Assembly: GCA_000091205.1 (NCBI GenBank)
Contig: AP006499.2
Length of the DNA: 64,000 bases
Source of the DNA: Cyanidioschyzon merolae
Lineage: Eukaryota
Reading direction: 5' to 3' (one strand)
Numbering within the stretch: position 1 is the stretch's first letter; each line of letters opens with the position of its first letter. The notes below the pieces were generated by a model. The model saw only the letters and a list, made by a program, of their open reading frames with translations, did no database searches and had not been told where the DNA came from. Made by a program: the position numbers and the translations under genes. This document shows, piece by piece, positions 2,220 to 51,320 of the stretch.

Positions 2220-4844
2220 ATGAACCTGTTCGCAGACCCGCCTTTAACTGCATTCGTGAAGGCGCTTCGTTCGCACCAGCACGAGGAGTTGTCTTTTGTG
2301 CAAAAGCAGCTTGAGCTGCTTCGAAGCGAGTGCGAGGACCGCGATCCGGAAAAGAAAGCCTGGGCCTTGCTGAAGCTGACTCACCTGAACCAGCACCTAC
2401 TAGCAGGCGACCTATCGTTCACCGCTTTTCCTATCGTGGAAACAGCCACTCGGTCTGTTCTATGGCAAAAACAGGTCGGATTGCTTGCTGCGAGTCTGCT
2501 CTTCCATTCTCAGACTCCGGAGACACTGCTACTCGCGAATCAATTGAGAAAAGATCTTCACAGTGGCAACCGCAACGAACAGGCGCTTGCGCTGACAGGG
2601 TTTGCGGGTTTCGCCTCCGCGGACCTCGCTGAGGCTTTGTGGCCCGACGTTGCAGCGCTGTTCACGAGCGCTCGTCCGTACCTGCGTAAGCGAGCAGTGG
2701 TCGCCTTCCATCGCAGCGTTCGTCAGTGCCCAGAGGTGCTGCCAGCGTGCTGGCCTCGCTTTGTCAACCTCCTGCAGGACGCCGACCCTTCCGTGGTCTG
2801 CGCATCAGTCACCGTTGCACTCGAAGAGGTGCATACGTATCCAGAACTGTTTATACAAGTGATTCCCCGTTTTTATGAAATCGCCAGCCAGGGCGGTAGC
2901 AATTGGTTGCTCATCAAAGTCCTGATGGTTCTCGACGCTCTGTGTGCACATGAACCGCGTCTACCAAAGAAACTCGCATCTTTGGTGACAAGCATGATAG
3001 AGGCAACCCAGGCCAAGTCGTTGGTGTTCGAATGTTGCCGAGTCGCATGTCGTCGCTTGGCCGATGACGGCCATTTGCTCTGTGTTGCCATTGCTCGTCT
3101 AATTGCGTTTGTTGAGGGTACCGATCAGAACCTTCGATACTTGGCGCTGAAAGTACTCCGCAATGTTGTCGAGTACCGGCCATCGATCATTTCGCAGAAA
3201 CAGTTGCAAGGCGTTCTCAACGAGTTACAGAACAACGACATCCTGGTGCGGCTTGCAGCGCTAGAATTGCTTTCGAGCAGAGTGCATACTGCCGATGACT
3301 TACGATGCCTGGCTCAGAGCATGGAGCGGATGTCGCTGTTAGAGCCCGCACCGGGGCGGGCCCCGAACCGGGACACATCCGAGGAGCTGCGATTTCGCTC
3401 GATGTTGTTCAGTGAGCTGTGGCGATGCATTCGAAGGGTGTTTCCGGATGGATCCACTGATCTGGCAGAGGCAGATGCAGCGTGGTTGCTTGTGTCCATC
3501 GTTCGCCCGGCGCTTGTTCGGGCATCACAACTCGATGAGAAAAACGTGGAGCGGTTTGCGGTGTTGCTTTGGAAGCTTGTTCAATTACATGAATCGCTAC
3601 GCGGATCTGCAGCGGCTGTGTGTCGTCAGGTTCTCGACCGCTGCCTCTCGGAATCACACGATTGGATCCGGTACTACGGCGCTATTCGAGTTTGTGTTTG
3701 GATACTGGGCACCAGTCTTGAAGGTGTGAACGACTCGTCTCGTGCCGCCAATGACCTGGAACGACTCACGGGACTGTTCCAGCTTTTCGAATGCGTACGC
3801 ACGGGCGACGAGGAATTGGACAGTTTCGCAGCACTCCAGACGACGGTGCTGCGAACATTGCGCTTTTGCTGTGAGCATTTGCAGGCTGACTTTTCCTTGC
3901 AAGTCAGAGAGCGCCTCCAAAGAATCGTTCTATTGAGTCCAAGCGCCTTTGAGGAGCACTGGCGCCTCCTGGGCATCCAGCGAGACGTCCAACGCCGAGC
4001 GGGAGAGATCACTCGTCGCAGCGCCCCGCACCCCGGGGCACTCCAAGCGCTTTTGCGTTCGCTGCCCGCTCTCTCGTCACACGAACTATCCGAGTGTTGG
4101 GCTGATCCGCACGACTTGCCGCCACCGACACCGACACCAGCGATACGTCGACCACGAAAGCATTCGGAATCACAGGGCGCATCTCGGAGTGGCAACAATG
4201 CCGAGGCGGCGCTCCTGCTGCTCGACACCGTCGACGCCAATGATGTCGTACGTGCGCCGCTGACAGCACTGCCGTACAGGTCCGCTGCGCCCGCAAGTGC
4301 AACAAATGAATCCAGGGGCGAAAGAGACGCGAGCAGCGCGCATCCTCTGCAAGCGTCAGCGAGTGCGGGATTCACCACCGCATCTGATGTCTGGGCAGCA
4401 CATCGTTTCGCGAGTGCCCCCGACGACACCTCAACGGATGCCACAGGAATGGAGGCAGCGGGAGCAAGCGCCCGCTCCACCACCGAGCTCGAGCACCTCG
4501 CATTCTACCTCCGTGATGCACCGAGCGCGCACGCACACGCACGACACGCACACGCACCAGCAGCCTCCGTGCCCTCGAATCAGCAGGCTGCTGATGCGCT
4601 CTCGATCGGCGCCAGTCTGCAGGGCAATGCGTGCACCAGGCATGATGCGATGCAGGGCGCACGCATCGCAGGTACCAGCGATGCCCCGGATGATGCCCTG
4701 TTGATTGACTTTTGTGCACCGTATGCAGCAATCGACGGTGGTGATGCTCCTGCAGGTGATGATGCACCATCTACGACCGGGGCTGACAACTTGGGACCGG
4801 GTCGGTGTGTTGCGACCCCGGAGCATACCCAAGCAGCAGTGTGA
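2220..4844 (+). CDS. AP3D1: AP-3 complex subunit delta (adaptin large subunit); C-terminal low-complexity His/Ala-rich tail
   Basis: N-terminal half aligns with adaptin N-domain motifs: 'NQLRKDL', 'ALTGFAGF..ADLAE', 'RPYLRKRAV', 'SNWLLIKVLMVLDAL..EPRLPKKL', 'KSLVFEC', 'TDQNLRYLAL'. These match the AP-3 delta family. Confidence 0.7.
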   Translation: MNLFADPPLTAFVKALRSHQHEELSFVQKQLELLRSECEDRDPEKKAWALLKLTHLNQHLLAGDLSFTAFPIVETATRSVLWQKQVGLLAASLLFHSQTPETLLLANQLRKDLHSGNRNEQALALTGFAGFASADLAEALWPDVAALFTSARPYLRKRAVVAFHRSVRQCPEVLPACWPRFVNLLQDADPSVVCASVTVALEEVHTYPELFIQVIPRFYEIASQGGSNWLLIKVLMVLDALCAHEPRLPKKLASLVTSMIEATQAKSLVFECCRVACRRLADDGHLLCVAIARLIAFVEGTDQNLRYLALKVLRNVVEYRPSIISQKQLQGVLNELQNNDILVRLAALELLSSRVHTADDLRCLAQSMERMSLLEPAPGRAPNRDTSEELRFRSMLFSELWRCIRRVFPDGSTDLAEADAAWLLVSIVRPALVRASQLDEKNVERFAVLLWKLVQLHESLRGSAAAVCRQVLDRCLSESHDWIRYYGAIRVCVWILGTSLEGVNDSSRAANDLERLTGLFQLFECVRTGDEELDSFAALQTTVLRTLRFCCEHLQADFSLQVRERLQRIVLLSPSAFEEHWRLLGIQRDVQRRAGEITRRSAPHPGALQALLRSLPALSSHELSECWADPHDLPPPTPTPAIRRPRKHSESQGASRSGNNAEAALLLLDTVDANDVVRAPLTALPYRSAAPASATNESRGERDASSAHPLQASASAGFTTASDVWAAHRFASAPDDTSTDATGMEAAGASARSTTELEHLAFYLRDAPSAHAHARHAHAPAASVPSNQQAADALSIGASLQGNACTRHDAMQGARIAGTSDAPDDALLIDFCAPYAAIDGGDAPAGDDAPSTTGADNLGPGRCVATPEHTQAAV

Positions 4845-42320: not shown

Positions 42321-43832
42321 TTGTTGGGCGAGGTGTGTTGTCGCTGTGGGTGCACCAAACGGACCGAATCGGTCGTTGATTTCATAACATACGAACTGCG
42401 TGCAAGCACAAGTTCTTGCTCATCGATCGTTAGAAGGTGTCCGAGCTCAGTACACAACGTTGTTCGCAGTATGCAGGCGACACCAGGCCTTGCGGTGCAA
42501 GCTGGTACGACGCCTGAGGTACGCAAATGGAAAGCTGACAACTCGCGGCAGCTTTACTCAGACGCAAAGGCATCACCCGAGAAACTGCTTGAAAGAGCGT
42601 GGCTGCGGCTTGGCCGGCGCGATGCAGACGCCTTGCGAGAAACGTCAACGCGAGCTACTGCCAATGCATCAGCGTCAGCGGCAGAGTTGGCTACCAGGGC
42701 ACCGTTATCGCCAGTGCTGTCTCGGGTAGATAGCAAGGACGCCAAGCTCCACTATACGCTGCAGCGCAGCACGTCCAAGGCTGTCATCTATGCTTCCGAG
42801 GATCCTCATCGGAACAGCAAGAACAAGGCTATCTCCAAGAGACAACTCGTCACTGAATGGACTCCCGACAAACGCATAGCCATGCAGGTGCCGGATGAAC
42901 GCCCGCGGGGCACTGTAACGGCAGCAACTGGCCCGGTGTCGACGGCGGTCCTGCGAACGCCAACCGCCTCTACCCCGGAACGACGACCCTGGACGCTGGG
43001 CGACTTTGAGATCGGAAGGCCACTGGGGCGCGGCAAATTCGGTAATGTTTACCTTGCACGGGAAAAAAGGACGCGCTACATTGTGGCACTCAAGGTCCTG
43101 TTCAAGGCTCAGTTGCAGAAAGCCGGTGTCGAGCACCAACTGCGTCGCGAGATTGAGATCCAGTCGCATCTACGGCATCCGAATATTCTTCGCCTTTTCG
43201 GGTATTTCCACGACGATACGCGCGTCTTCCTAATCCTGGAATACGCCGGGCGAGGTGAGCTGTACCGCGAACTCCAGAGATGTGGCCGTTTCAGCGAGCG
43301 CCGCACGGCGACCTATATCGCGCAACTCGCACACGCACTGGAGTACTGTCACCGCAAGCACGTTATCCACCGAGATATCAAACCGGAAAACTTGCTCCTA
43401 GGCATCTTCGGAGAGTTGAAGATTGCCGATTTTGGTTGGAGCGTGCACGCACCGCAGTCTCGTCGGAATACACTGTGCGGCACCCTAGATTATTTACCGC
43501 CGGAAATGGTTGAGGGCGCGCCACATGATGCGCGCGTCGATATCTGGAGTTTGGGCGTGCTCACCTACGAGTTCCTGGTGGGAAATCCGCCTTTCGAAGC
43601 GCAGAGTCACGAAGAGACGTACCGACGCATTGCACGAGTGGATCTGCGCTTCCCGCCGAGCGTCTCTGCGGGGGCGCGAGACCTCATCCGGAAGCTGCTG
43701 GTGCGCGACCCGGCCGAGCGTCTGCCACTCGATGCTCTGCTGAAGCACCCGTGGATTCAGGCCAATGCTGAGTTCGTGCCACGAATCGGTGAGTTGTCTT
43801 TACCGCCGCGAATGCACGCTGCGGAACAATAG
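42321..43832 (+). CDS. Aurora-family Ser/Thr kinase with ~220-aa N-terminal extension
   Basis: '[21 protein letters not shown]', '[10 protein letters not shown]', '[23 protein letters not shown]', '[11 protein letters not shown]', 'DFGWSVHAP...[15 protein letters not shown]'. Confidence 0.75.
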
Positions 43833-44256: not shown

Positions 44257-45048
44257 TCAGCGCTCGTCGGAACGAGCCTCCCGCTTATCCTCCTTCAGCG
44301 CGTCTCGTTTGTAAATGACCTCATCGATGAGACCGAACGCTTTCGCGGCCTCCGCAGACATGAAATGATCGCGCTCCATTTTGTCCGCAATAACATGCTT
44401 ATTCTGACCCGTGTGCTTGGCGTAGAGCTCGTGCAAACGCTCACGCAGAAACAGAATCTCATTGGCGTGGATGGCAATATCTGAAGCCTGCCCGCCGGCT
44501 TGCCCACTCGGCTGATGAATCATCACACGAGCGTTCGGTAAGCAGCGGCGCTCGCCCGGCTCACCCGCGCATAGCAGCAACGATGCCATAGAGCTCGCCT
44601 GGCCCAAGCAAACCGTGTGCACCGGAGCAGATATATATTGCATGGTGTCGTAGATCGCCATCCCCGCTGAGATGATGCCCCCTGGTGAGTGAATGTACAT
44701 AGAGAGCGCCTTCGCCGGCGCTACCGACTCCAAGTACAGCAACTGCGCAACGACGAGAGAGGCCACGGTATCCGTGATAGGACCGTTGAGCACAATAATA
44801 CGCTCTCTGAGCAGACGCGAGTATATGTCGTAGACGCGCTCTCCTCGCGGTGTCTGTTCGAGGACGATGGGTACGAGTTGCGCTTGAGCGGCGTCAGCGC
44901 CTGCTGTCGTGGGCCCAGCGTCGAAGCCCGGGCCGGTTCGGTTCGGAATCCCAGGGCGGAACCAGGAGTAAAAGCGAGCACGTGCACCTAGACGCGAAAA
45001 AGTTTGCGCAGACGGCAGGATTCGAACCTGCGCGGCGAGACACCACAT
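44257..45048 (-). CDS. CLPP: ATP-dependent Clp protease proteolytic subunit (organellar ClpP) with N-terminal presequence
   Basis: '[22 protein letters not shown]', 'MYIHSPGG', '[15 protein letters not shown]', 'RVMIHQP'. The annotated first Met (45048) lies inside the tRNA-Ser gene. Confidence 0.75.
44997..45001 (-). terminator. Pol III T5 terminator immediately 3' of tRNA-Ser
   Basis: Minus-strand sequence after the tRNA 3' end is 'CAAACTTTTTCGCG'. Confidence 0.45.
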
Positions 45049-45139
45049 GATACCGAGGCGTCAGCGCGAGGCAATGTATACCAGCACTGGCTGCAGAACG
45101 CGTTCGAGTCATGCACCTTAACCACTCGGTCACGTCTGC
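45007..45139 (-). tRNA. tRNA-Ser(CGA) with ~51-nt intron (about 45052-45102) 3' of anticodon position 37
   Basis: Minus strand: acceptor GCAGACG/CGTCTGC (7/7 bp); D-arm ACC-GAGTGGTTAA-GGT; anticodon stem CATGA/TCATG with loop CTCGAA[intron]A; long variable arm TGGTGTCTCGCCGC; T-arm GCAGG-TTCGAAT-CCTGC. Near-identical in architecture to yeast tRNA-Ser(CGA). Confidence 0.8.
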
Positions 45140-45575
45140 CGGATAATCATACCATTGCGTGCGAAATCTGTATATAAAGGGTATTGGGGGAGTTGCGGCT
45201 CGAGGCGGCGCTTGGCGCTAGCGGCGCGCGTGTGCCTTCGTCCACCCTGACTTGCTCGCTCGATTGCTTGCGGGAACGACCTGGCAATCGAGCTGCGCAC
45301 TGTGCGGGGAACGCTTTCACAAGCTCACCGAGCGACTGGCGTTAAGCTGAGTGCGCGAATGCCTAGTGTCTTCGGCGCAACGGGACACTGACGCTGCTCT
45401 CTTGTTTCCCTTAGAATAGTGGTGTAAGGCACGTGATCGCGCACGGGGTCTGTGTTCGATGAGTCACGTGCCCGCTGCGCCTGTGTGTGTTGATGATGCG
45501 CGAACAAGGTATGAAGTGATCGAGTGTTGTAACGTTTAGGTCCTTCTCTGGCGTGATATGAGCGGGGGATAGGAA

Positions 45576-47786: not shown

Positions 47787-49995
47787 ATCCTGTTTTATAC
47801 AGTTTCTTCCGTTTTGTAGATGCAGGTACCGTTTCGATGATGCTGCCGACGACGCCGTGCAGCGCTAGGCGCCCGCGGCCAGCACGCTCGCAACGGGCAG
47901 CGTTTGCGCGCATGCATGAACCTCTGCCAGTGCGCGTGTGCGGCACCAGGAAGCACTGAGACGTGTTCGAGGCTGTGCTCTGAAGCCCGCCTGTCTGCCT
48001 GTCTGCCTGTCTGCCAATTGCGGACGCTGTGATCCCGGTAAATCATCCATGTGGCACCACTGCGGCAGGCAGTGCAGAGCTTGAATGCAGCACTCATCGA
48101 CTACCCAGCGTACGATAGCGACGACGCACATTCCGCGTGTTGACACGCGCCGGGTACCTATGGTCGGTGGCTGGAGATCGACAGGGAATGCCAGGTACCG
48201 ACGCCTTACAAAACGCTTTTGCCCGAACTGTGCCTGCTATGCAATGCGTATCGTCGGTCGAGCGACTGACGTCACACTGCAGCGCGCCCAGTAGCGAGAT
48301 GGTGCCAGAAACCTCGTACACGTCATCCAGTCATGCGTCAGGACGATACCTGGAGCTATGAGCACGTCATTTTGACTCTTTCGCTGCAGAGTTCAGCGAC
48401 GATCGACGACGGCATTCGGGAACTGTTTCTGTACCATCTCCGTATGGCAACAGCAGCGGGGTGCTTCCAGGGGCGCAACGGACCCGTGCGCCACACTTGC
48501 CACCCGGAGAGTCGCTTGAACGAATTATGATACCCCGATGCCAAGTAGGGTCTGCAGTTCGTCGAAATCAGGGTCGTGACTGGTGTGTGGACTACCATGC
48601 AGTCGAATACGGGTGAGTCTCGGCCGCTTTCCTGGCTACCGATAACCACGGCACATCCTGGAATCCCCGATTCGTCTCATCGATCCCAGACTATCAGGAA
48701 GGTTTCAGCGACATCGACGCGCTCGAAGCGAGAACGCATAACGCTTCACGATGCGAGGGTTTGCCTTCACCACGAGGGACTCGGATGCTTCCGAGTCGTT
48801 CATGCTGTGCATTCTGATGAACGAGTTGAGGTTAGGCGCAAGCGCCACCTGTTTCTACGTGCTCATCCTCTGACCGAGATCGCTCACAAAGATACGCGTT
48901 CACGTACCCTGGACATTGCCTATCGTATCGAGGAAGCGGGATGCAGTGCGCGATCCGCCACAAAAACGACCGCAGCGCGCTGGATGCGATGCAAAAGCGC
49001 AAAGGCACCCCTGCTGTGCACGAAACGCAACGAATGGCGGCGACTTGCAAGAGATCCACATTGAAACTGCTACAACAAAGCGGTTCATAACCGCTGGGCG
49101 AGCGCTATATAGCTGATACGTGAAGAAACGCAATACCACAAACGGCGCTTCTAGGACGGCCAACACACTCGCGTCATTCGCTCGATGCAGCAGAGCAATT
49201 TTTACATGCACCGTCGACGAAACCCAGCGCCCTGCCTGGACTTGTTTCGCAATATCGCAAGAACAAAGATGCGCTCGTAGGTACCAGAACATGCAGCGCA
49301 TTGCTCTCTCGAGTGAAGCGTGCCGTTGAATCCGCATCCAATGTCATGCAGAATCTGGAACTGGCCCAGCATACACGAATTCATAATTGCCGGCAGGTAC
49401 AGCACCTGTTGACGCGGCTACACCAAGCCGCATCTCGACGAGACTCGATTATGCTGTTTTCGTATCCCGTCAGCGGGTACGGAAAACGGAAACGGCAGCG
49501 GATCGCACCCCGTGATTTCGTGCTTATGGATCGGAAGCGCTGTTGTTCCTGTCATGGTGGCCTCGACGAGAGGTGCCACTCGCAATCCAAACATTCGCCA
49601 CGAATCAGGCTACTGGTGCAGATGCAGTTGATGGTTCAGCAGACGTTGTCAAATGACATCCTCTGTCGCATACGATACTGCACAACGAACGGATTTAACG
49701 ATGCTGCACATGTAGAACAAGTGCATCCGAGGAGACGCTCCACGTTCCGCAGCGTAGATTGCTTTCTGCCTTGACACTATTCCAAAGCGAACCGTCGCCC
49801 CAGGTGTCTCCATACAGCGCGGAGCGTCTGTGCTTCGACCGCGCATCCATTTACCACTGCAACCATTGAACAAGTCGTGCTTCTCGGCGTTATCTAGACC
49901 GGGTCCAACGGTGATGTGCATCGAACAAGTGACCTGTGAGCAACAATGGGCGTACTGGGGATGACAGACTCCGCAACTCGCGCGAGGTGCTCCTC

Positions 49996-50178
49996 GAAAC
50001 CCCGTAATACTCGGGGAATACGTCAGGCCATAAAGCCGAATGGCCCCGACGATGCATCATTGCATGCAAAGAAGCAGCATAACCTGGAAACCCCGTAATA
50101 CTCGGGGAAAACGTCAGGCCATAAAGCTGAATGGCCTCGACGATGCATCATTGCATGCAAAGAAGCAGCATAACCTGG
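49996..50178. repeat. 91-nt x2 tandem repeat with internal inverted repeats, in 3' flank of the WDR82 gene
   Basis: 'gaaaccccgtaatactcggggaa.acgtcaggccataaagc.gaatggcc.cgacgatgcatcattgcatgcaaagaagcagcataacctgg' occurs twice. Contains hairpin 'ccccg-taatac-tcgggg'. Confidence 0.85.
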
Positions 50179-50204: not shown

Positions 50205-51320
50205 TCAAACATAGTCGAGTGTTGCCGGGTCTGGTTGCCAGAAGACCACATTCTGACACGCGCTTACGAGCAGTGCGTACTGCGGATTAAACCCTAACGC
50301 CCGCGAATACATGGAATGCCCGTGCAGAACGTGACACGGATTCCCCGTCGCCCTTTCCCAAATGTGAATGCTTGCATCTTCTGATCCCGAAAGCACGTAC
50401 TGTGAGTCCGGACTAAAGCATGCGTCAAGCTCATAGGCCTGGTCATTCGCGTGGCCTCTACAGAGTGTCTGCAGACAACCGTTGAATGCGTCCAGTATCT
50501 GAATGCGTGGATTCGGTTCAGCCGCACCTACGAGCAGTGAGCGGCCGTCGCCGCTAAACTTGAGTACGGTTGGCTCAGAGGTTGTTACGTTGCTCTCAAA
50601 GTCGATAAATGGGCCCTCATCCCATTTGCGGAGATCGTAGAGCTTAATCACGAGTTTCAACAGGTCACTGAATGCTACTGCAGCGACAAGACCAGATGGA
50701 TCGACGGCAACTGCGGGGCGCCCTCGTACCTGCAGCACGCCTGCACAATGGGGATAACGAATGTCCCAGAGCCGCATGGTGCCGTCCAATGCTGCTGACA
50801 TGAACGAATCATCATTCGGCGTCACTGCGATGGAAACAACGCGCGCACGATGACCACGAAAGTACCGTATGTATTTGCTCTCCGTTAACGACAGATAGCG
50901 AATATGATCGTCCCAGGACAGCGGCGCATTGTCCGGTGCCCGGGCTTGGAGTGAACCGCTGCCGGGGTCCAGAACTGGTTTGCTTGCGCATAGTACTGCA
51001 GATTTGTGGTTACCGAAGCGAATGACACCGCACCCGTAGCGTTTCACTGGTATTGTCGTCAAGAGTCTGCCTTGAACGGCGCTGTACACACTGATGAGGC
51101 CATCATCACCACCGGCCGCTACGATTTCGCCATCAACCGAAAAGTCTAGAGTGCAGACCTGTTCTTGATGGACATTTTTGAAGACTTTTGTTTTGCGCAG
51201 GCTCTGCATCGCTCGGTTGTTTAGCCTCACTATCGGAAGGTCTCGCTGCTGCGAAGTGAAAACTCTGGGCTCCATGCTCCAATTCCGTACTGAACAGCGA
51301 ACGAAATTGACAACGTTCAC
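50205..51320 (-). CDS. WD40-repeat protein WDR82/Swd2-like (COMPASS / PP1-PNUTS component)
   Basis: WD repeats 'GGDDGLISVYS', 'YFRGHRARVVSIAVTPNDDSFMSAALDGTMRLWDIR', 'GSEDASIHIWE'; 371 aa. Confidence 0.65.
   Translation of the reverse strand: MNVVNFVRCSVRNWSMEPRVFTSQQRDLPIVRLNNRAMQSLRKTKVFKNVHQEQVCTLDFSVDGEIVAAGGDDGLISVYSAVQGRLLTTIPVKRYGCGVIRFGNHKSAVLCASKPVLDPGSGSLQARAPDNAPLSWDDHIRYLSLTESKYIRYFRGHRARVVSIAVTPNDDSFMSAALDGTMRLWDIRYPHCAGVLQVRGRPAVAVDPSGLVAAVAFSDLLKLVIKLYDLRKWDEGPFIDFESNVTTSEPTVLKFSGDGRSLLVGAAEPNPRIQILDAFNGCLQTLCRGHANDQAYELDACFSPDSQYVLSGSEDASIHIWERATGNPCHVLHGHSMYSRALGFNPQYALLVSACQNVVFWQPDPATLDYV

Follow-up and report, generated by a model that had tools for sequence, protein, structure and literature searches.

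An apparent same-strand overlap of an intron-containing tRNA-Ser(CGA) gene and the start of the mitochondrial-type ClpP gene in Cyanidioschyzon merolae and related red algae

In the stretch of nuclear DNA analysed here (the window, 64,000 nt of Cyanidioschyzon merolae 10D contig AP006499.2), the annotated start codon of a ClpP gene lies inside a gene for tRNA-Ser(CGA) on the same strand. The question raised by this locus is whether one piece of DNA serves both genes, or whether the 5' end of ClpP has been misplaced. We compared the window sequence (W) with the same locus in Cyanidium caldarium (L001) and in two further diverged lineages (L002 and L003). Based on these comparisons, the locus probably represents a real and conserved case of two functional nuclear genes of C. 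merolae 10D that overlap on the same strand, with the ClpP AUG located in the 3' strand of the tRNA anticodon stem. Use of this AUG as the ClpP start is something we infer from comparative sequence alone. The features of the locus are collected in Table 1.

Table 1. Features of the tRNA-Ser(CGA)/ClpP locus in window coordinates.
Feature	Position	Strand	Evidence or remark
TATA-like box TTTATATA	45171..45178	-	31 nt 5' of the tRNA; presumed Pol III (TFIIIB/TBP) promoter element
tRNA-Ser(CGA) exon 1: acceptor 5' strand, D arm, anticodon stem 5' strand, CGA through A37	45103..45139	-	ARAGORN with introns, RF00005; invariant in four lineages except for the compensatory D-stem pair
Upstream ATG, out of frame, in anticodon stem 5' strand	45110..45112	-	Palindromic partner (CATG) of the ClpP start codon; in all four lineages
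tRNA intron, 51 nt, position compatible with the canonical 37/38 site	45052..45102	-	ARAGORN; holds the in-frame TGA 15 nt 5' of the ClpP ATG; no ATG
tRNA-Ser(CGA) exon 2: A38, anticodon stem 3' strand, long variable arm, T arm, acceptor 3' strand, discriminator G	45007..45051	-	ARAGORN, RF00005, pairing
ClpP coding sequence, 263 aa + stop	44257..45048	-	Identical to the deposited C. merolae 10D protein BAM81975.1 / XP_005538011.1
Dual-use segment, 42 nt: tRNA positions 41–73 = ClpP codons 1–14	45007..45048	-	Same-strand overlap, 42 nt in all four lineages
ClpP codons 15–57: remaining presumed mitochondrial presequence and propeptide	44878..45006	-	Excess of third-position change; W, L003 and L002 without indels
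T5 run, presumed Pol III terminator	44997..45001	-	Inside ClpP codons 16–18 (ACT TTT TCG)
Conserved motif R-F-Y-S-W-F-R-P, codons 25–32	44953..44976	-	Candidate R-3 type processing-peptidase site

The tRNA-Ser(CGA) gene and its signals

ARAGORN with intron search called a tRNA-Ser(cga) at c[45006,45139] with a 51-nt intron, and the Rfam model RF00005 matched positions 45139..45007 of the minus strand over model positions 1–71 of 71, with a score of 48.9 bits against a gathering score of 29 (E=2e-7). This was the sole Rfam match across the 64-kb window. ARAGORN in its default mode (no introns) found no tRNA in the window; as that mode ignores introns, the miss does not count against the tRNA. 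Two additional calls obtained with unlimited intron length, a tRNA-Gly(ccc) at c[4010,4488] with a 382-nt intron and a tRNA-Thr(agt) at c[49385,50144] with a 664-nt intron, were rejected as spurious based on their mismatched stems, implausible intron lengths and lack of Rfam support. One of these two calls sits inside the AP-3 delta coding sequence.

The predicted tRNA has a 7-bp acceptor stem (GCAGACG paired with CGTCTGC), a 3-bp D stem of the class II type, an anticodon loop of CUCGAA/A (the slash marks the intron site), a variable arm with a 5-bp stem and a 3-nt loop, and the T arm GCAGG-TTCGAAT-CCTGC. The long variable arm, the discriminator G73 (the G at 45007) and the anticodon CGA are serine identity features. 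The initial annotation had proposed an intron-containing tRNA-Ser(CGA) at 45007–45139 with a perfect 7-bp acceptor stem, a Ser-type D arm, a long variable arm, an intron of about 51 nt at 37/38 in the loop CTCGAA/A and a T5 terminator, and each of these elements was recovered, including the T run at 45001..44997.

Comparison of the four lineages provided evidence of selection on the tRNA itself. All 25 base pairs were standard in every sequence (100 of 100 pair-by-sequence cells), versus 25–52% paired in slid controls, and two pairs, 10:25 in the D stem and the first pair of the T stem, have undergone compensatory change. These compensatory changes argue that tRNA-Ser(CGA) is selected at the RNA level. 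A chance origin of the tRNA/ClpP arrangement is excluded by the Rfam score, the pairing with its compensatory pairs in four lineages and the conservation of the arrangement. Based on the RNA-level constraint, the gene is presumably expressed and its transcript spliced to mature tRNA-Ser(CGA).

The position of the intron is compatible with 37/38: ARAGORN assigned it to this site in L002 and L003 and to a site one base further on in W, where its length is 51 nt either way. Apart from the compensatory pairs the exons are invariant, and the intron sequences are unalignable except for a 3' segment, CCUCGGU, which is conserved in all four lineages and can pair with U33 and the anticodon. In the minimum-energy fold of L003, UCGA (U33 plus anticodon) is paired with the UCGG of this segment; the fold of W itself is a different structure.

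The TATA-like box is the only conserved block of the upstream intergenic region in the four lineages, with TTATAT invariant, and no such box occurs within 250 nt of the ATG for 13 of the 17 other long ORFs in the window. T-runs of 5, 4, 4 and 6 follow just 3' of the tRNA in the four lineages. In C. merolae the majority of tRNA genes have an upstream TATA-like promoter, and this locus has the TATA-like sequence within 50 bp upstream and the T-stretch downstream that are used to recognize TFIIIC-independent genes of the C. merolae type (PMC3728597, PMC3978253). In addition, 17 of 42 C. merolae tRNA introns are at the canonical 37/38 position and intron lengths range over 11–69 nt (Soma et al. 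2013, PMC3728597; review PMC3978253), so that by promoter, T-stretch, intron position and intron length the tRNA-Ser(CGA) gene and its intron are ordinary for C. merolae. What sets the gene apart from the published C. merolae tRNA genes is that its exon 2 appears to provide a start codon and 14 codons as well. A sigma-70 promoter and intrinsic-terminator scan of the window was disregarded as not applicable to a eukaryote.

The ClpP coding sequence and its shared segment

The encoded protein matched Pfam PF00574 over residues 68–247 with 260.7 bits (cut-off 20.2), and S153, H178 and D227 were invariant in an 11-sequence alignment; based on homology to the E. coli ClpP motifs, we take these three residues to be the catalytic Ser-His-Asp triad. 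The closest relatives are mitochondrial-type ClpP proteins of red algae and plants and alphaproteobacterial ClpP. These similarities identify the gene, at the level of sequence, as encoding a mitochondrial-type ClpP protease. An exact look-up of the protein returned only long genomic contigs; contigs bearing a 178-aa call with a GTG start were also genomic, and their ends are assembly breaks. Six proteins encoded in the window match C. merolae 10D entries exactly, among them ClpP (BAM81975.1), whose deposited start is the one described here. The deposited starts of the C. merolae and Cyanidium proteins are gene-model calls, namely the first ATG of the ORF, and therefore do not constitute independent evidence for the start codon.

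The ClpP ATG (45048–45046) corresponds to tRNA positions 41–43. The initial annotation had assigned this only in-frame Met to exon 2 or to the intron, of which exon 2 proved correct and the intron did not, and had estimated a same-strand overlap of about 40 nt, which is exactly 42 nt. In W the nearest in-frame stop is the intronic TGA, and there is no further in-frame ATG ahead of the catalytic core. Comparison of ClpP N-termini in relatives, as the initial annotation had suggested, revealed the same tRNA-ATG arrangement in L001, L002 and L003, which supports the second of its two readings, that the tRNA is embedded in the ClpP 5' region.

The ATG of the tRNA is in frame with ClpP in all four lineages and begins an open ORF (263, 263, 264 and 273 aa in W, L003, L002 and L001, respectively), with no second in-frame ATG ahead of the ClpP core. 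In-frame stops are located 15, 21 and 48 nt upstream of the tRNA ATG in three of the four. The spacer from the tRNA to the QLVP of the ClpP core is 126, 126, 126 and 168 nt, each a multiple of three, whereas the lengths of the flanking non-coding segments vary arbitrarily (leader 31, 30, 32 and 35 nt; intron 51, 42, 37 and 36 nt). Common descent links W, L002 and L003, so the argument from frame has the weight of about two independent lineages, supplemented by the lack of indels.

The three parts of the coding sequence have evolved differently. Codons 1–14 had no third-position differences (0 of 14, versus 51–59% in the ClpP core), with no synonymous changes where about 8 were expected per pair, and the compensatory change in the T stem of Cyanidium converts ClpP codon 12 from Pro to Ser. 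In codons 15–57, third positions differed at 58–67% compared to 33–42% at positions 1 and 2, a pattern which indicates, from sequence comparison, that the spacer between tRNA and ClpP core evolves like coding sequence. The core had 15–22 nonsynonymous versus 97–108 synonymous codon differences, reflecting strong purifying selection. Both an RNA constraint and a protein-frame constraint (an open in-phase frame, no alternative ATG and indels only in multiples of three) are consequently apparent in the shared segment. In the outgroups Galdieria partita, L014 and L015, ClpP begins at a start codon of its own, and no tRNA lies close by. The comparison thus places the origin of the overlap in the common ancestor of Cyanidioschyzon and Cyanidium, with the overlap absent in Galdieria and other red algae. 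A metagenome scan with the tRNA exon-2 pattern returned only contigs identical to C. merolae and no new lineages.

The first 14 residues of ClpP would be a translation of the tRNA's variable arm, T arm and acceptor 3' strand, forming the N-terminal part of a cleavable targeting presequence. The N-terminus has four Arg and no Asp or Glu in its first 30 residues, the first acidic residue being at 43, and its maximum 11-mer helical moment is 0.68, versus 0.55 +/- 0.09 in random sequences. Taken by itself, the 14-mer derived from the tRNA has a low moment (0.23–0.35), and it is residues 9–32 that give the N-terminus most of its presequence character. The motif at codons 25–32 is kept (also as RSYSWFRP) with synonymous third-position changes, and we consider it a candidate for an R-3 type processing-peptidase cleavage site. 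Targeting presequences tolerate almost any composition without acidic residues, and it may therefore be that the sequence is set by its role in the RNA and accommodated by the protein.

Alternative explanations and transcription of the locus

Of the alternatives to a ClpP mRNA that begins within the tRNA gene, the one that deserves most weight, although we consider it unlikely, accepts the overlap as real and has the ClpP mRNA start 5' of the tRNA, possibly at the same TATA box as Pol III. The pre-tRNA would then make up the ClpP 5' UTR and first codons, and each Pol II transcript would either be translated by leaky scanning past the upstream AUG or be cut by RNase P and RNase Z, in which case a tRNA is gained and the ClpP message destroyed. 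This explanation is consistent with the TATA-like box being the only conserved upstream intergenic element and with the gap of only 188 nt between the upstream gene and the tRNA in Cyanidium, and tRNAs within Pol II transcripts are known elsewhere, for example in plant dicistronic transcripts. However, a message of this kind would meet the out-of-frame AUG with a purine at -3 in the anticodon stem of all four lineages, from which the uORFs of 72 codons in W and 252 codons in Cyanidium overlap the ClpP start. Furthermore, it is established enzymology that RNase Z cuts after the discriminator, which here would split the AUG and 14 codons from the remaining ORF, and most Pol II genes in the window are without a TATA box.

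That ClpP instead starts at a non-AUG codon 3' of the tRNA and T-run, with its coding sequence not overlapping the tRNA and the open frame through the tRNA accidental, is improbable. In-frame near-cognate codons do occur at codons 20–24 in L003 (TTG), L002 (ACG, TTG and GTG) and L001 (GTG, AAG and TTG), but C. merolae has none between codons 11 and 34, and the positions of the candidates are not conserved. In addition, the frame is open to the tRNA ATG in four of four lineages although the adjoining non-coding DNA gains indels that are not multiples of three, and non-AUG codons are rare as the sole site of initiation.

Less credible still is a mis-annotated gene model, also raised in the initial annotation, in which the true first exon of ClpP lies 5' of the tRNA and the tRNA within a spliceosomal intron. 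W does have an ATG/GTATGA 11 nt 5' of the tRNA and an in-frame AG (GCGCAG/GTT) in the T stem. However, this ATG-GT is not conserved, and in W joining the ATG to the sole AG between the tRNA and the conserved presequence motif gives the wrong frame. L001, L002 and L003 have no donor-like GTRWGW within 200 nt upstream and no branch-like CTRAC, and in L003 the 71 nt that follow the tRNA, a stretch reaching past the conserved motif, are free of AG. C. merolae also has very few spliceosomal introns, which counts against this model.

Nothing specific favors the remaining idea, that the tRNA-like sequence is a relic or pseudogene kept only for encoding the ClpP N-terminus (the default ARAGORN miss is due solely to the ignored introns), and we regard it as scarcely tenable given that invariance extends to exon 1 and the acceptor 5' strand, which are not part of the coding sequence, that compensatory changes keep the D and T stems paired even where one alters a ClpP residue, that the 14 codons have no synonymous changes, that the TATA box and T-run are conserved, and that among the 43 nuclear tRNA genes of C. 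merolae only tRNA-Gly(CCC) is reported as duplicated (PMC3728597).

For the preferred reading, an overlap of two functional genes, the following course of events is proposed. The tRNA-Ser(CGA) gene would presumably be transcribed by Pol III and its transcript then spliced by the tRNA endonuclease, and Pol II would make the ClpP mRNA as a transcript of its own, reading across the T-run. The most likely start of productive ClpP mRNAs is within the tRNA gene, at a point in the anticodon loop or intron that is 3' of the out-of-frame AUG at 45112. With such a start the ClpP AUG would be the first AUG, and the message, lacking the 5' half of the tRNA, would be spared cleavage by RNase P and RNase Z.

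The absence of ATG from all four introns fits a transcription start inside the tRNA gene, a result that is weakly significant given four short introns. The uORF from the anticodon-stem AUG has not been kept short (72, 5, 36 and 252 codons in the four lineages), which we also counted in favor of such a start. Against it, there is no conserved promoter-like element besides the TATA box of the tRNA. The folding of a hypothetical 5'-truncated mRNA, from the intron through codon 24, was no better than that of shuffled sequences in two of three lineages (z = -0.11, +0.59 and -1.91). As the T-arm hairpin alone was consistently kept in these folds, they provide no evidence for a special mRNA structure.

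More speculatively, the two polymerases may share the locus in a regulatory way. Pol III would produce pre-tRNA-Ser from the TATA box to the T-run, and Pol II a ClpP mRNA starting in the tRNA intron or at the same TATA box. The unusually long intron would persist because it doubles as the ClpP 5' UTR. RNase Z would cut any transcript with a complete tRNA fold, so that tRNA and ClpP outputs would be mutually exclusive per transcript and cytosolic decoding capacity would be coupled to mitochondrial proteostasis. We consider this extended scenario doubtful.

Comparison with known systems and significance

Intronic tRNA genes in animals, and dicistronic tRNA-snoRNA genes and poly(A)-RNA::tRNA transcripts in plants, are known, in part as cited in PMC13578239. 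The ClpP locus resembles these embedded or co-transcribed tRNA genes in that the tRNA lies on the same strand within the unit of another gene, with the attendant interplay of Pol II and Pol III and the problem of RNase P and RNase Z. In those cases, however, the tRNA is in an intron, a UTR or a non-coding partner and supplies neither translated codons nor a start codon, unlike at the ClpP locus.

Overlaps between tRNA and protein genes occur in animal mitochondrial DNA, and overlapping transcription occurs in nucleomorphs and microsporidia. As in these compact genomes, one stretch of DNA at the ClpP locus serves two products, a feature tied to genome compaction. Mitochondrial overlaps usually involve a few nt at gene ends, one polycistronic transcript and one polymerase, whereas the overlap here is nuclear, presumably involves two polymerases, spans 42 nt and is conserved across genera.

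The protein itself is similar to other mitochondrial ClpP proteins (plant CLPP2 / 'nClpP7', PF00574) in its core domain, Ser-His-Asp triad and acid-free N-terminal extension. It differs from them in that a tRNA gene would determine its first 14 residues; the presequences of Galdieria, Gracilaria and others are unrelated and belong to the MxxxxRxL type. A tRNA gene sharing sequence with a protein-coding gene is not mentioned in PMC3728597 or PMC3978253, and the literature searched contained nothing relevant on nuclear tRNA/CDS start overlaps, C. merolae transcription-start or UTR data, or C. merolae ClpP. The conserved dual use of tRNA and coding sequence is unusual, and we found no description of it in the literature.

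If the anticodon-stem AUG is the real ClpP start, the locus would be a conserved nuclear case of a functional tRNA gene that is also translated. It would indicate that mitochondrial presequences are very permissive, accepting a tRNA variable arm, T arm and acceptor strand as their first 14 residues, and that a start codon can be captured from an adjoining RNA gene during genome compaction. Transcription by Pol II would have to start within a presumably active Pol III gene or pass through it, and the message would need to evade RNase P, RNase Z and the endonuclease that splices tRNAs. With its genetic tractability, only 43 nuclear tRNA genes and lack of identifiable TFIIIC box-binding subunits, C. 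merolae is suited to studying how Pol II and Pol III share one locus. For annotators, the overlapping tRNA and CDS features at the ClpP locus would then not be an error.

The tRNA-Ser(CGA) gene and its overlap with ClpP

The intron-containing tRNA-Ser(CGA) proposed in the initial annotation was recovered by ARAGORN with intron search (c[45006,45139], 51-nt intron). The Rfam tRNA model RF00005 also matched it end to end (45139..45007, minus strand; score 48.9 bits, gathering score 29), and this was the sole Rfam match in the window. A default ARAGORN run found no tRNA at the locus because that mode ignores introns. The perfect 7-bp acceptor stem, long variable arm, interrupted anticodon loop (CUCGAA|A) and T5 run described earlier were all present on the minus strand, together with a 3-bp D stem, a 5-bp variable-arm stem and a G discriminator.

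Elements of the tRNA-Ser(CGA) gene and its flanks
Feature	Position	Strand	Remark
TTTATATA box (TATA-like)	45178-45171	minus	31 nt 5' of tRNA
tRNA exon 1	45139-45103	minus	
tRNA intron	45102-45052	minus	51 nt
tRNA exon 2	45051-45007	minus	
T5 run	45001-44997	minus	3' of tRNA

Cyanidioschyzon merolae has 43 nuclear tRNA genes, 27 of them with introns of 11-69 bp, and 17 introns are at position 37/38 (PMC3728597). The presumed promoter of these genes is an upstream TATA-like box and the presumed terminator a T-stretch, and the TFIIIC box-binding subunits have no identified homologs (PMC3728597, PMC3978253). The tRNA-Ser(CGA) gene shares this architecture of TATA-like box, intron and T-run, and it and its intron are therefore ordinary for the organism. 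A tRNA pseudouridine38-40 synthase gene (BAM81972.1; 35547-36821, minus) lies about 8 kb away, probably by coincidence.

With unlimited intron length, ARAGORN also reported a tRNA-Gly(ccc) with a 382-nt intron (4010-4488, minus) and a tRNA-Thr(agt) with a 664-nt intron (49385-50144, minus). Their stems contain mismatches and Rfam does not support them, so both were rejected as false positives; the former lies inside the AP-3 delta coding sequence. A 91-nt unit is tandemly duplicated at 49992-50173 (two copies, 96% identical), in intergenic sequence directly 3' of an ORF at 50205..51320 (minus). Each copy holds the near-palindromic TGCATCATTGCATGCA, and the unit had no Rfam match.

The ClpP ORF (45048 to 44257, minus strand) encodes 263 residues identical to BAM81975.1; five of six long window ORFs tested matched deposited C. 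merolae 10D proteins exactly (BAM81962, 81968, 81971, 81972 and 81975; CMQ locus tags). It carries Pfam PF00574 (260.7 bits), has Ser153/His178/Asp227 invariant in the alignment, and groups with mitochondrial-type and alphaproteobacterial ClpP. The first 30 residues include four Arg and no acidic residue; the N-terminal extension appears to have presequence character, and a conserved R-F-Y|S motif looks like a candidate R-3 processing site.

The same-strand overlap, estimated initially at about 40 nt, is exactly 42 nt (45048-45007). The ClpP ATG had been placed within exon 2 or the intron; it is in exon 2 and not the intron, where it spans tRNA positions 41-43 on the 3' side of the anticodon stem. 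A TGA in the ClpP frame occurs 15 nt 5' of this ATG, within the intron, and no second in-frame ATG was found in the window ahead of the ClpP core (LVPIVLEQ), leaving 45048 as the only in-frame Met for the presequence, as had been stated.

Constraint on the shared segment in four lineages

The closest relatives of this ClpP are cyanidialean. Three loci were compared with the window: Cyanidium caldarium (L001, GCA_026184775.1; identity ~68-70%), a JGI metagenome contig (L002; ~82-84%) and an assembly of run SRR7903764 (L003; ~82-85%). All three have an intron-containing tRNA-Ser(CGA) directly before ClpP. That of Cyanidium was labelled Ala(cgc) because ARAGORN placed its intron two bases further 5'; the anticodon loop in the exon sequence still reads CUCGAA. 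In all four lineages the overlap measures exactly 42 nt, the ATG within the tRNA lies in the ClpP frame and is the sole in-frame ATG before the core, and the ORF is open (263, 264, 263 and 273 aa). The suggestion that the tRNA is embedded in the ClpP 5' region was thus supported.

Third positions in the ClpP core differ by 51-59% among the window, L002 and L003, such that synonymous sites are near saturation and neutral DNA is expected to be scrambled, as observed. The leader between TATA box and tRNA measures 31/30/32/35 nt, and the introns (51/42/37/36 nt) are alignable only at the 3' end. However, the spacer that separates the tRNA end from the QLVP codons is 126, 126, 126 or 168 nt, always divisible by three. 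In codons 15-57, third-position differences reach 58-67% versus 33-42% at positions 1 and 2, and changes within a conserved motif, R-x-(Y/C)-S-W-F-R-P, include purely synonymous ones. Together, these features argue that coding constraint on the reading frame extends as far as the tRNA.

By contrast, codons 1-14 showed 0/14 third-position differences in each pair. Changes there are confined to the variable-arm loop and one Cyanidium T-stem pair (G:C to A:U), which is compensatory for the RNA but alters codon 12 from Pro to Ser; a second compensatory pair is in the D stem, outside the ClpP coding sequence. This pattern indicates that the shared segment has its sequence set by RNA function, which the protein accepts. 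As judged from these comparisons, two constrained products are shown to share the 42 nt.

A convergent Ser/Thr protein kinase gene 3' of ClpP (window 42321-43832) is also common to the four lineages, forming a tRNA-ClpP-kinase block. In L002, one additional gene call of 142 aa separates ClpP from the kinase. In Cyanidium the gene 5' of the tRNA differs; it encodes a COPI-associated protein and lies at a distance of only 188 nt.

Proposed expression of the two products

The tRNA would be transcribed by Pol III from the TATA box to the T-run, and the ClpP mRNA by Pol II, which would ignore the T-run. The anticodon stem holds the palindrome CATG, with ATG on both stem strands (45110-45112 and 45046-45048, minus), so an out-of-frame AUG is necessarily present in the 5' strand. 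Across the four lineages, the uORF opened by this AUG (45112) has 72, 5, 36 and 252 codons, and it is therefore not kept short. In addition, by established enzymology, RNase P and RNase Z would act on any transcript that contains the complete tRNA, and the RNase Z cut would sever the ClpP AUG from its ORF. For these reasons, we favor an mRNA whose 5' end falls within the anticodon loop or intron (45109 to 45049). No AUG would then precede that of ClpP, and the tRNA fold would be lost. The introns lack ATG in all four lineages, which is weakly consistent with a start inside the tRNA gene.

Alternatively, the ClpP mRNA may be longer and begin upstream of the tRNA, perhaps at a shared TATA box, which is the only conserved upstream element. 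However, Pol II genes in the window do not typically have a TATA box: a TATA-like hexamer was absent within 250 nt 5' of the first ATG in 13 of 17 long ORFs, which suggests that C. merolae Pol II promoters, unlike tRNA genes, are mostly TATA-less.

The initial annotation had also considered a mis-inferred ClpP 5' exon, with the true one spliced over the tRNA. This was not supported, as the donor-like ATG|GTATGA occurs in the window only and is not conserved, neither a GTRWGW within 200 nt nor a CTRAC branch motif was found in the relatives, and L003 has no AG for 71 nt 3' of the tRNA. A non-AUG start after the tRNA is unlikely, since near-cognate codons are missing between codons 11 and 34 in C. 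merolae and the relatives' candidate codons are not conserved. The invariance of exon 1, the compensatory pairs and the conservation of both TATA box and T-run contradict a relic tRNA.

Extent and novelty of the overlap

Environmental C. merolae-like contigs (L004-L023; JGI, ENA, Logan) all kept the overlap. Across -160..+200 around the ClpP ATG they differ from 10D only at 45143 and 45158 (T>C, G>A), in the leader 4 and 19 nt 5' of the tRNA, with no variation in tRNA, intron or presequence.

Comparison of ClpP N-termini, as initially proposed, showed the tRNA start kept in L001-L003 and unrelated sequence in the outgroups. The genes of Galdieria partita (L024) and two further red-algal-like loci (L014, L015) have their own N-termini and no tRNA nearby; that of G. 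partita starts MMWQWT, followed by an intron, and no tRNA was found within 4 kb. Galdieria phlegrea ClpP (P0011) likewise has an unrelated N-terminus, in a comparison at the protein level only. These outgroups indicate that the overlap is a derived trait of the Cyanidioschyzon/Cyanidium clade. At L024 4001-4075, the G. partita intron (GTAAGT...CAG) is spliceosomal and directly follows the sixth codon (MMWQWT|); it is absent in the C. merolae and Cyanidium orthologues, where the N-terminus is tRNA-derived.

Public sources already contain the tRNA, its intron type and the ClpP gene model. The overlap itself was not found described in the papers on C. merolae tRNAs, in a 2026 review on how tRNA genes are organised in algae and plants, or through keyword literature searches. 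Related arrangements that are known comprise tRNA genes within introns or UTRs and overlaps between organellar genes. What would be new relative to these is a nuclear tRNA that is functional and at the same time contributes a conserved start codon and 14 codons that are translated.
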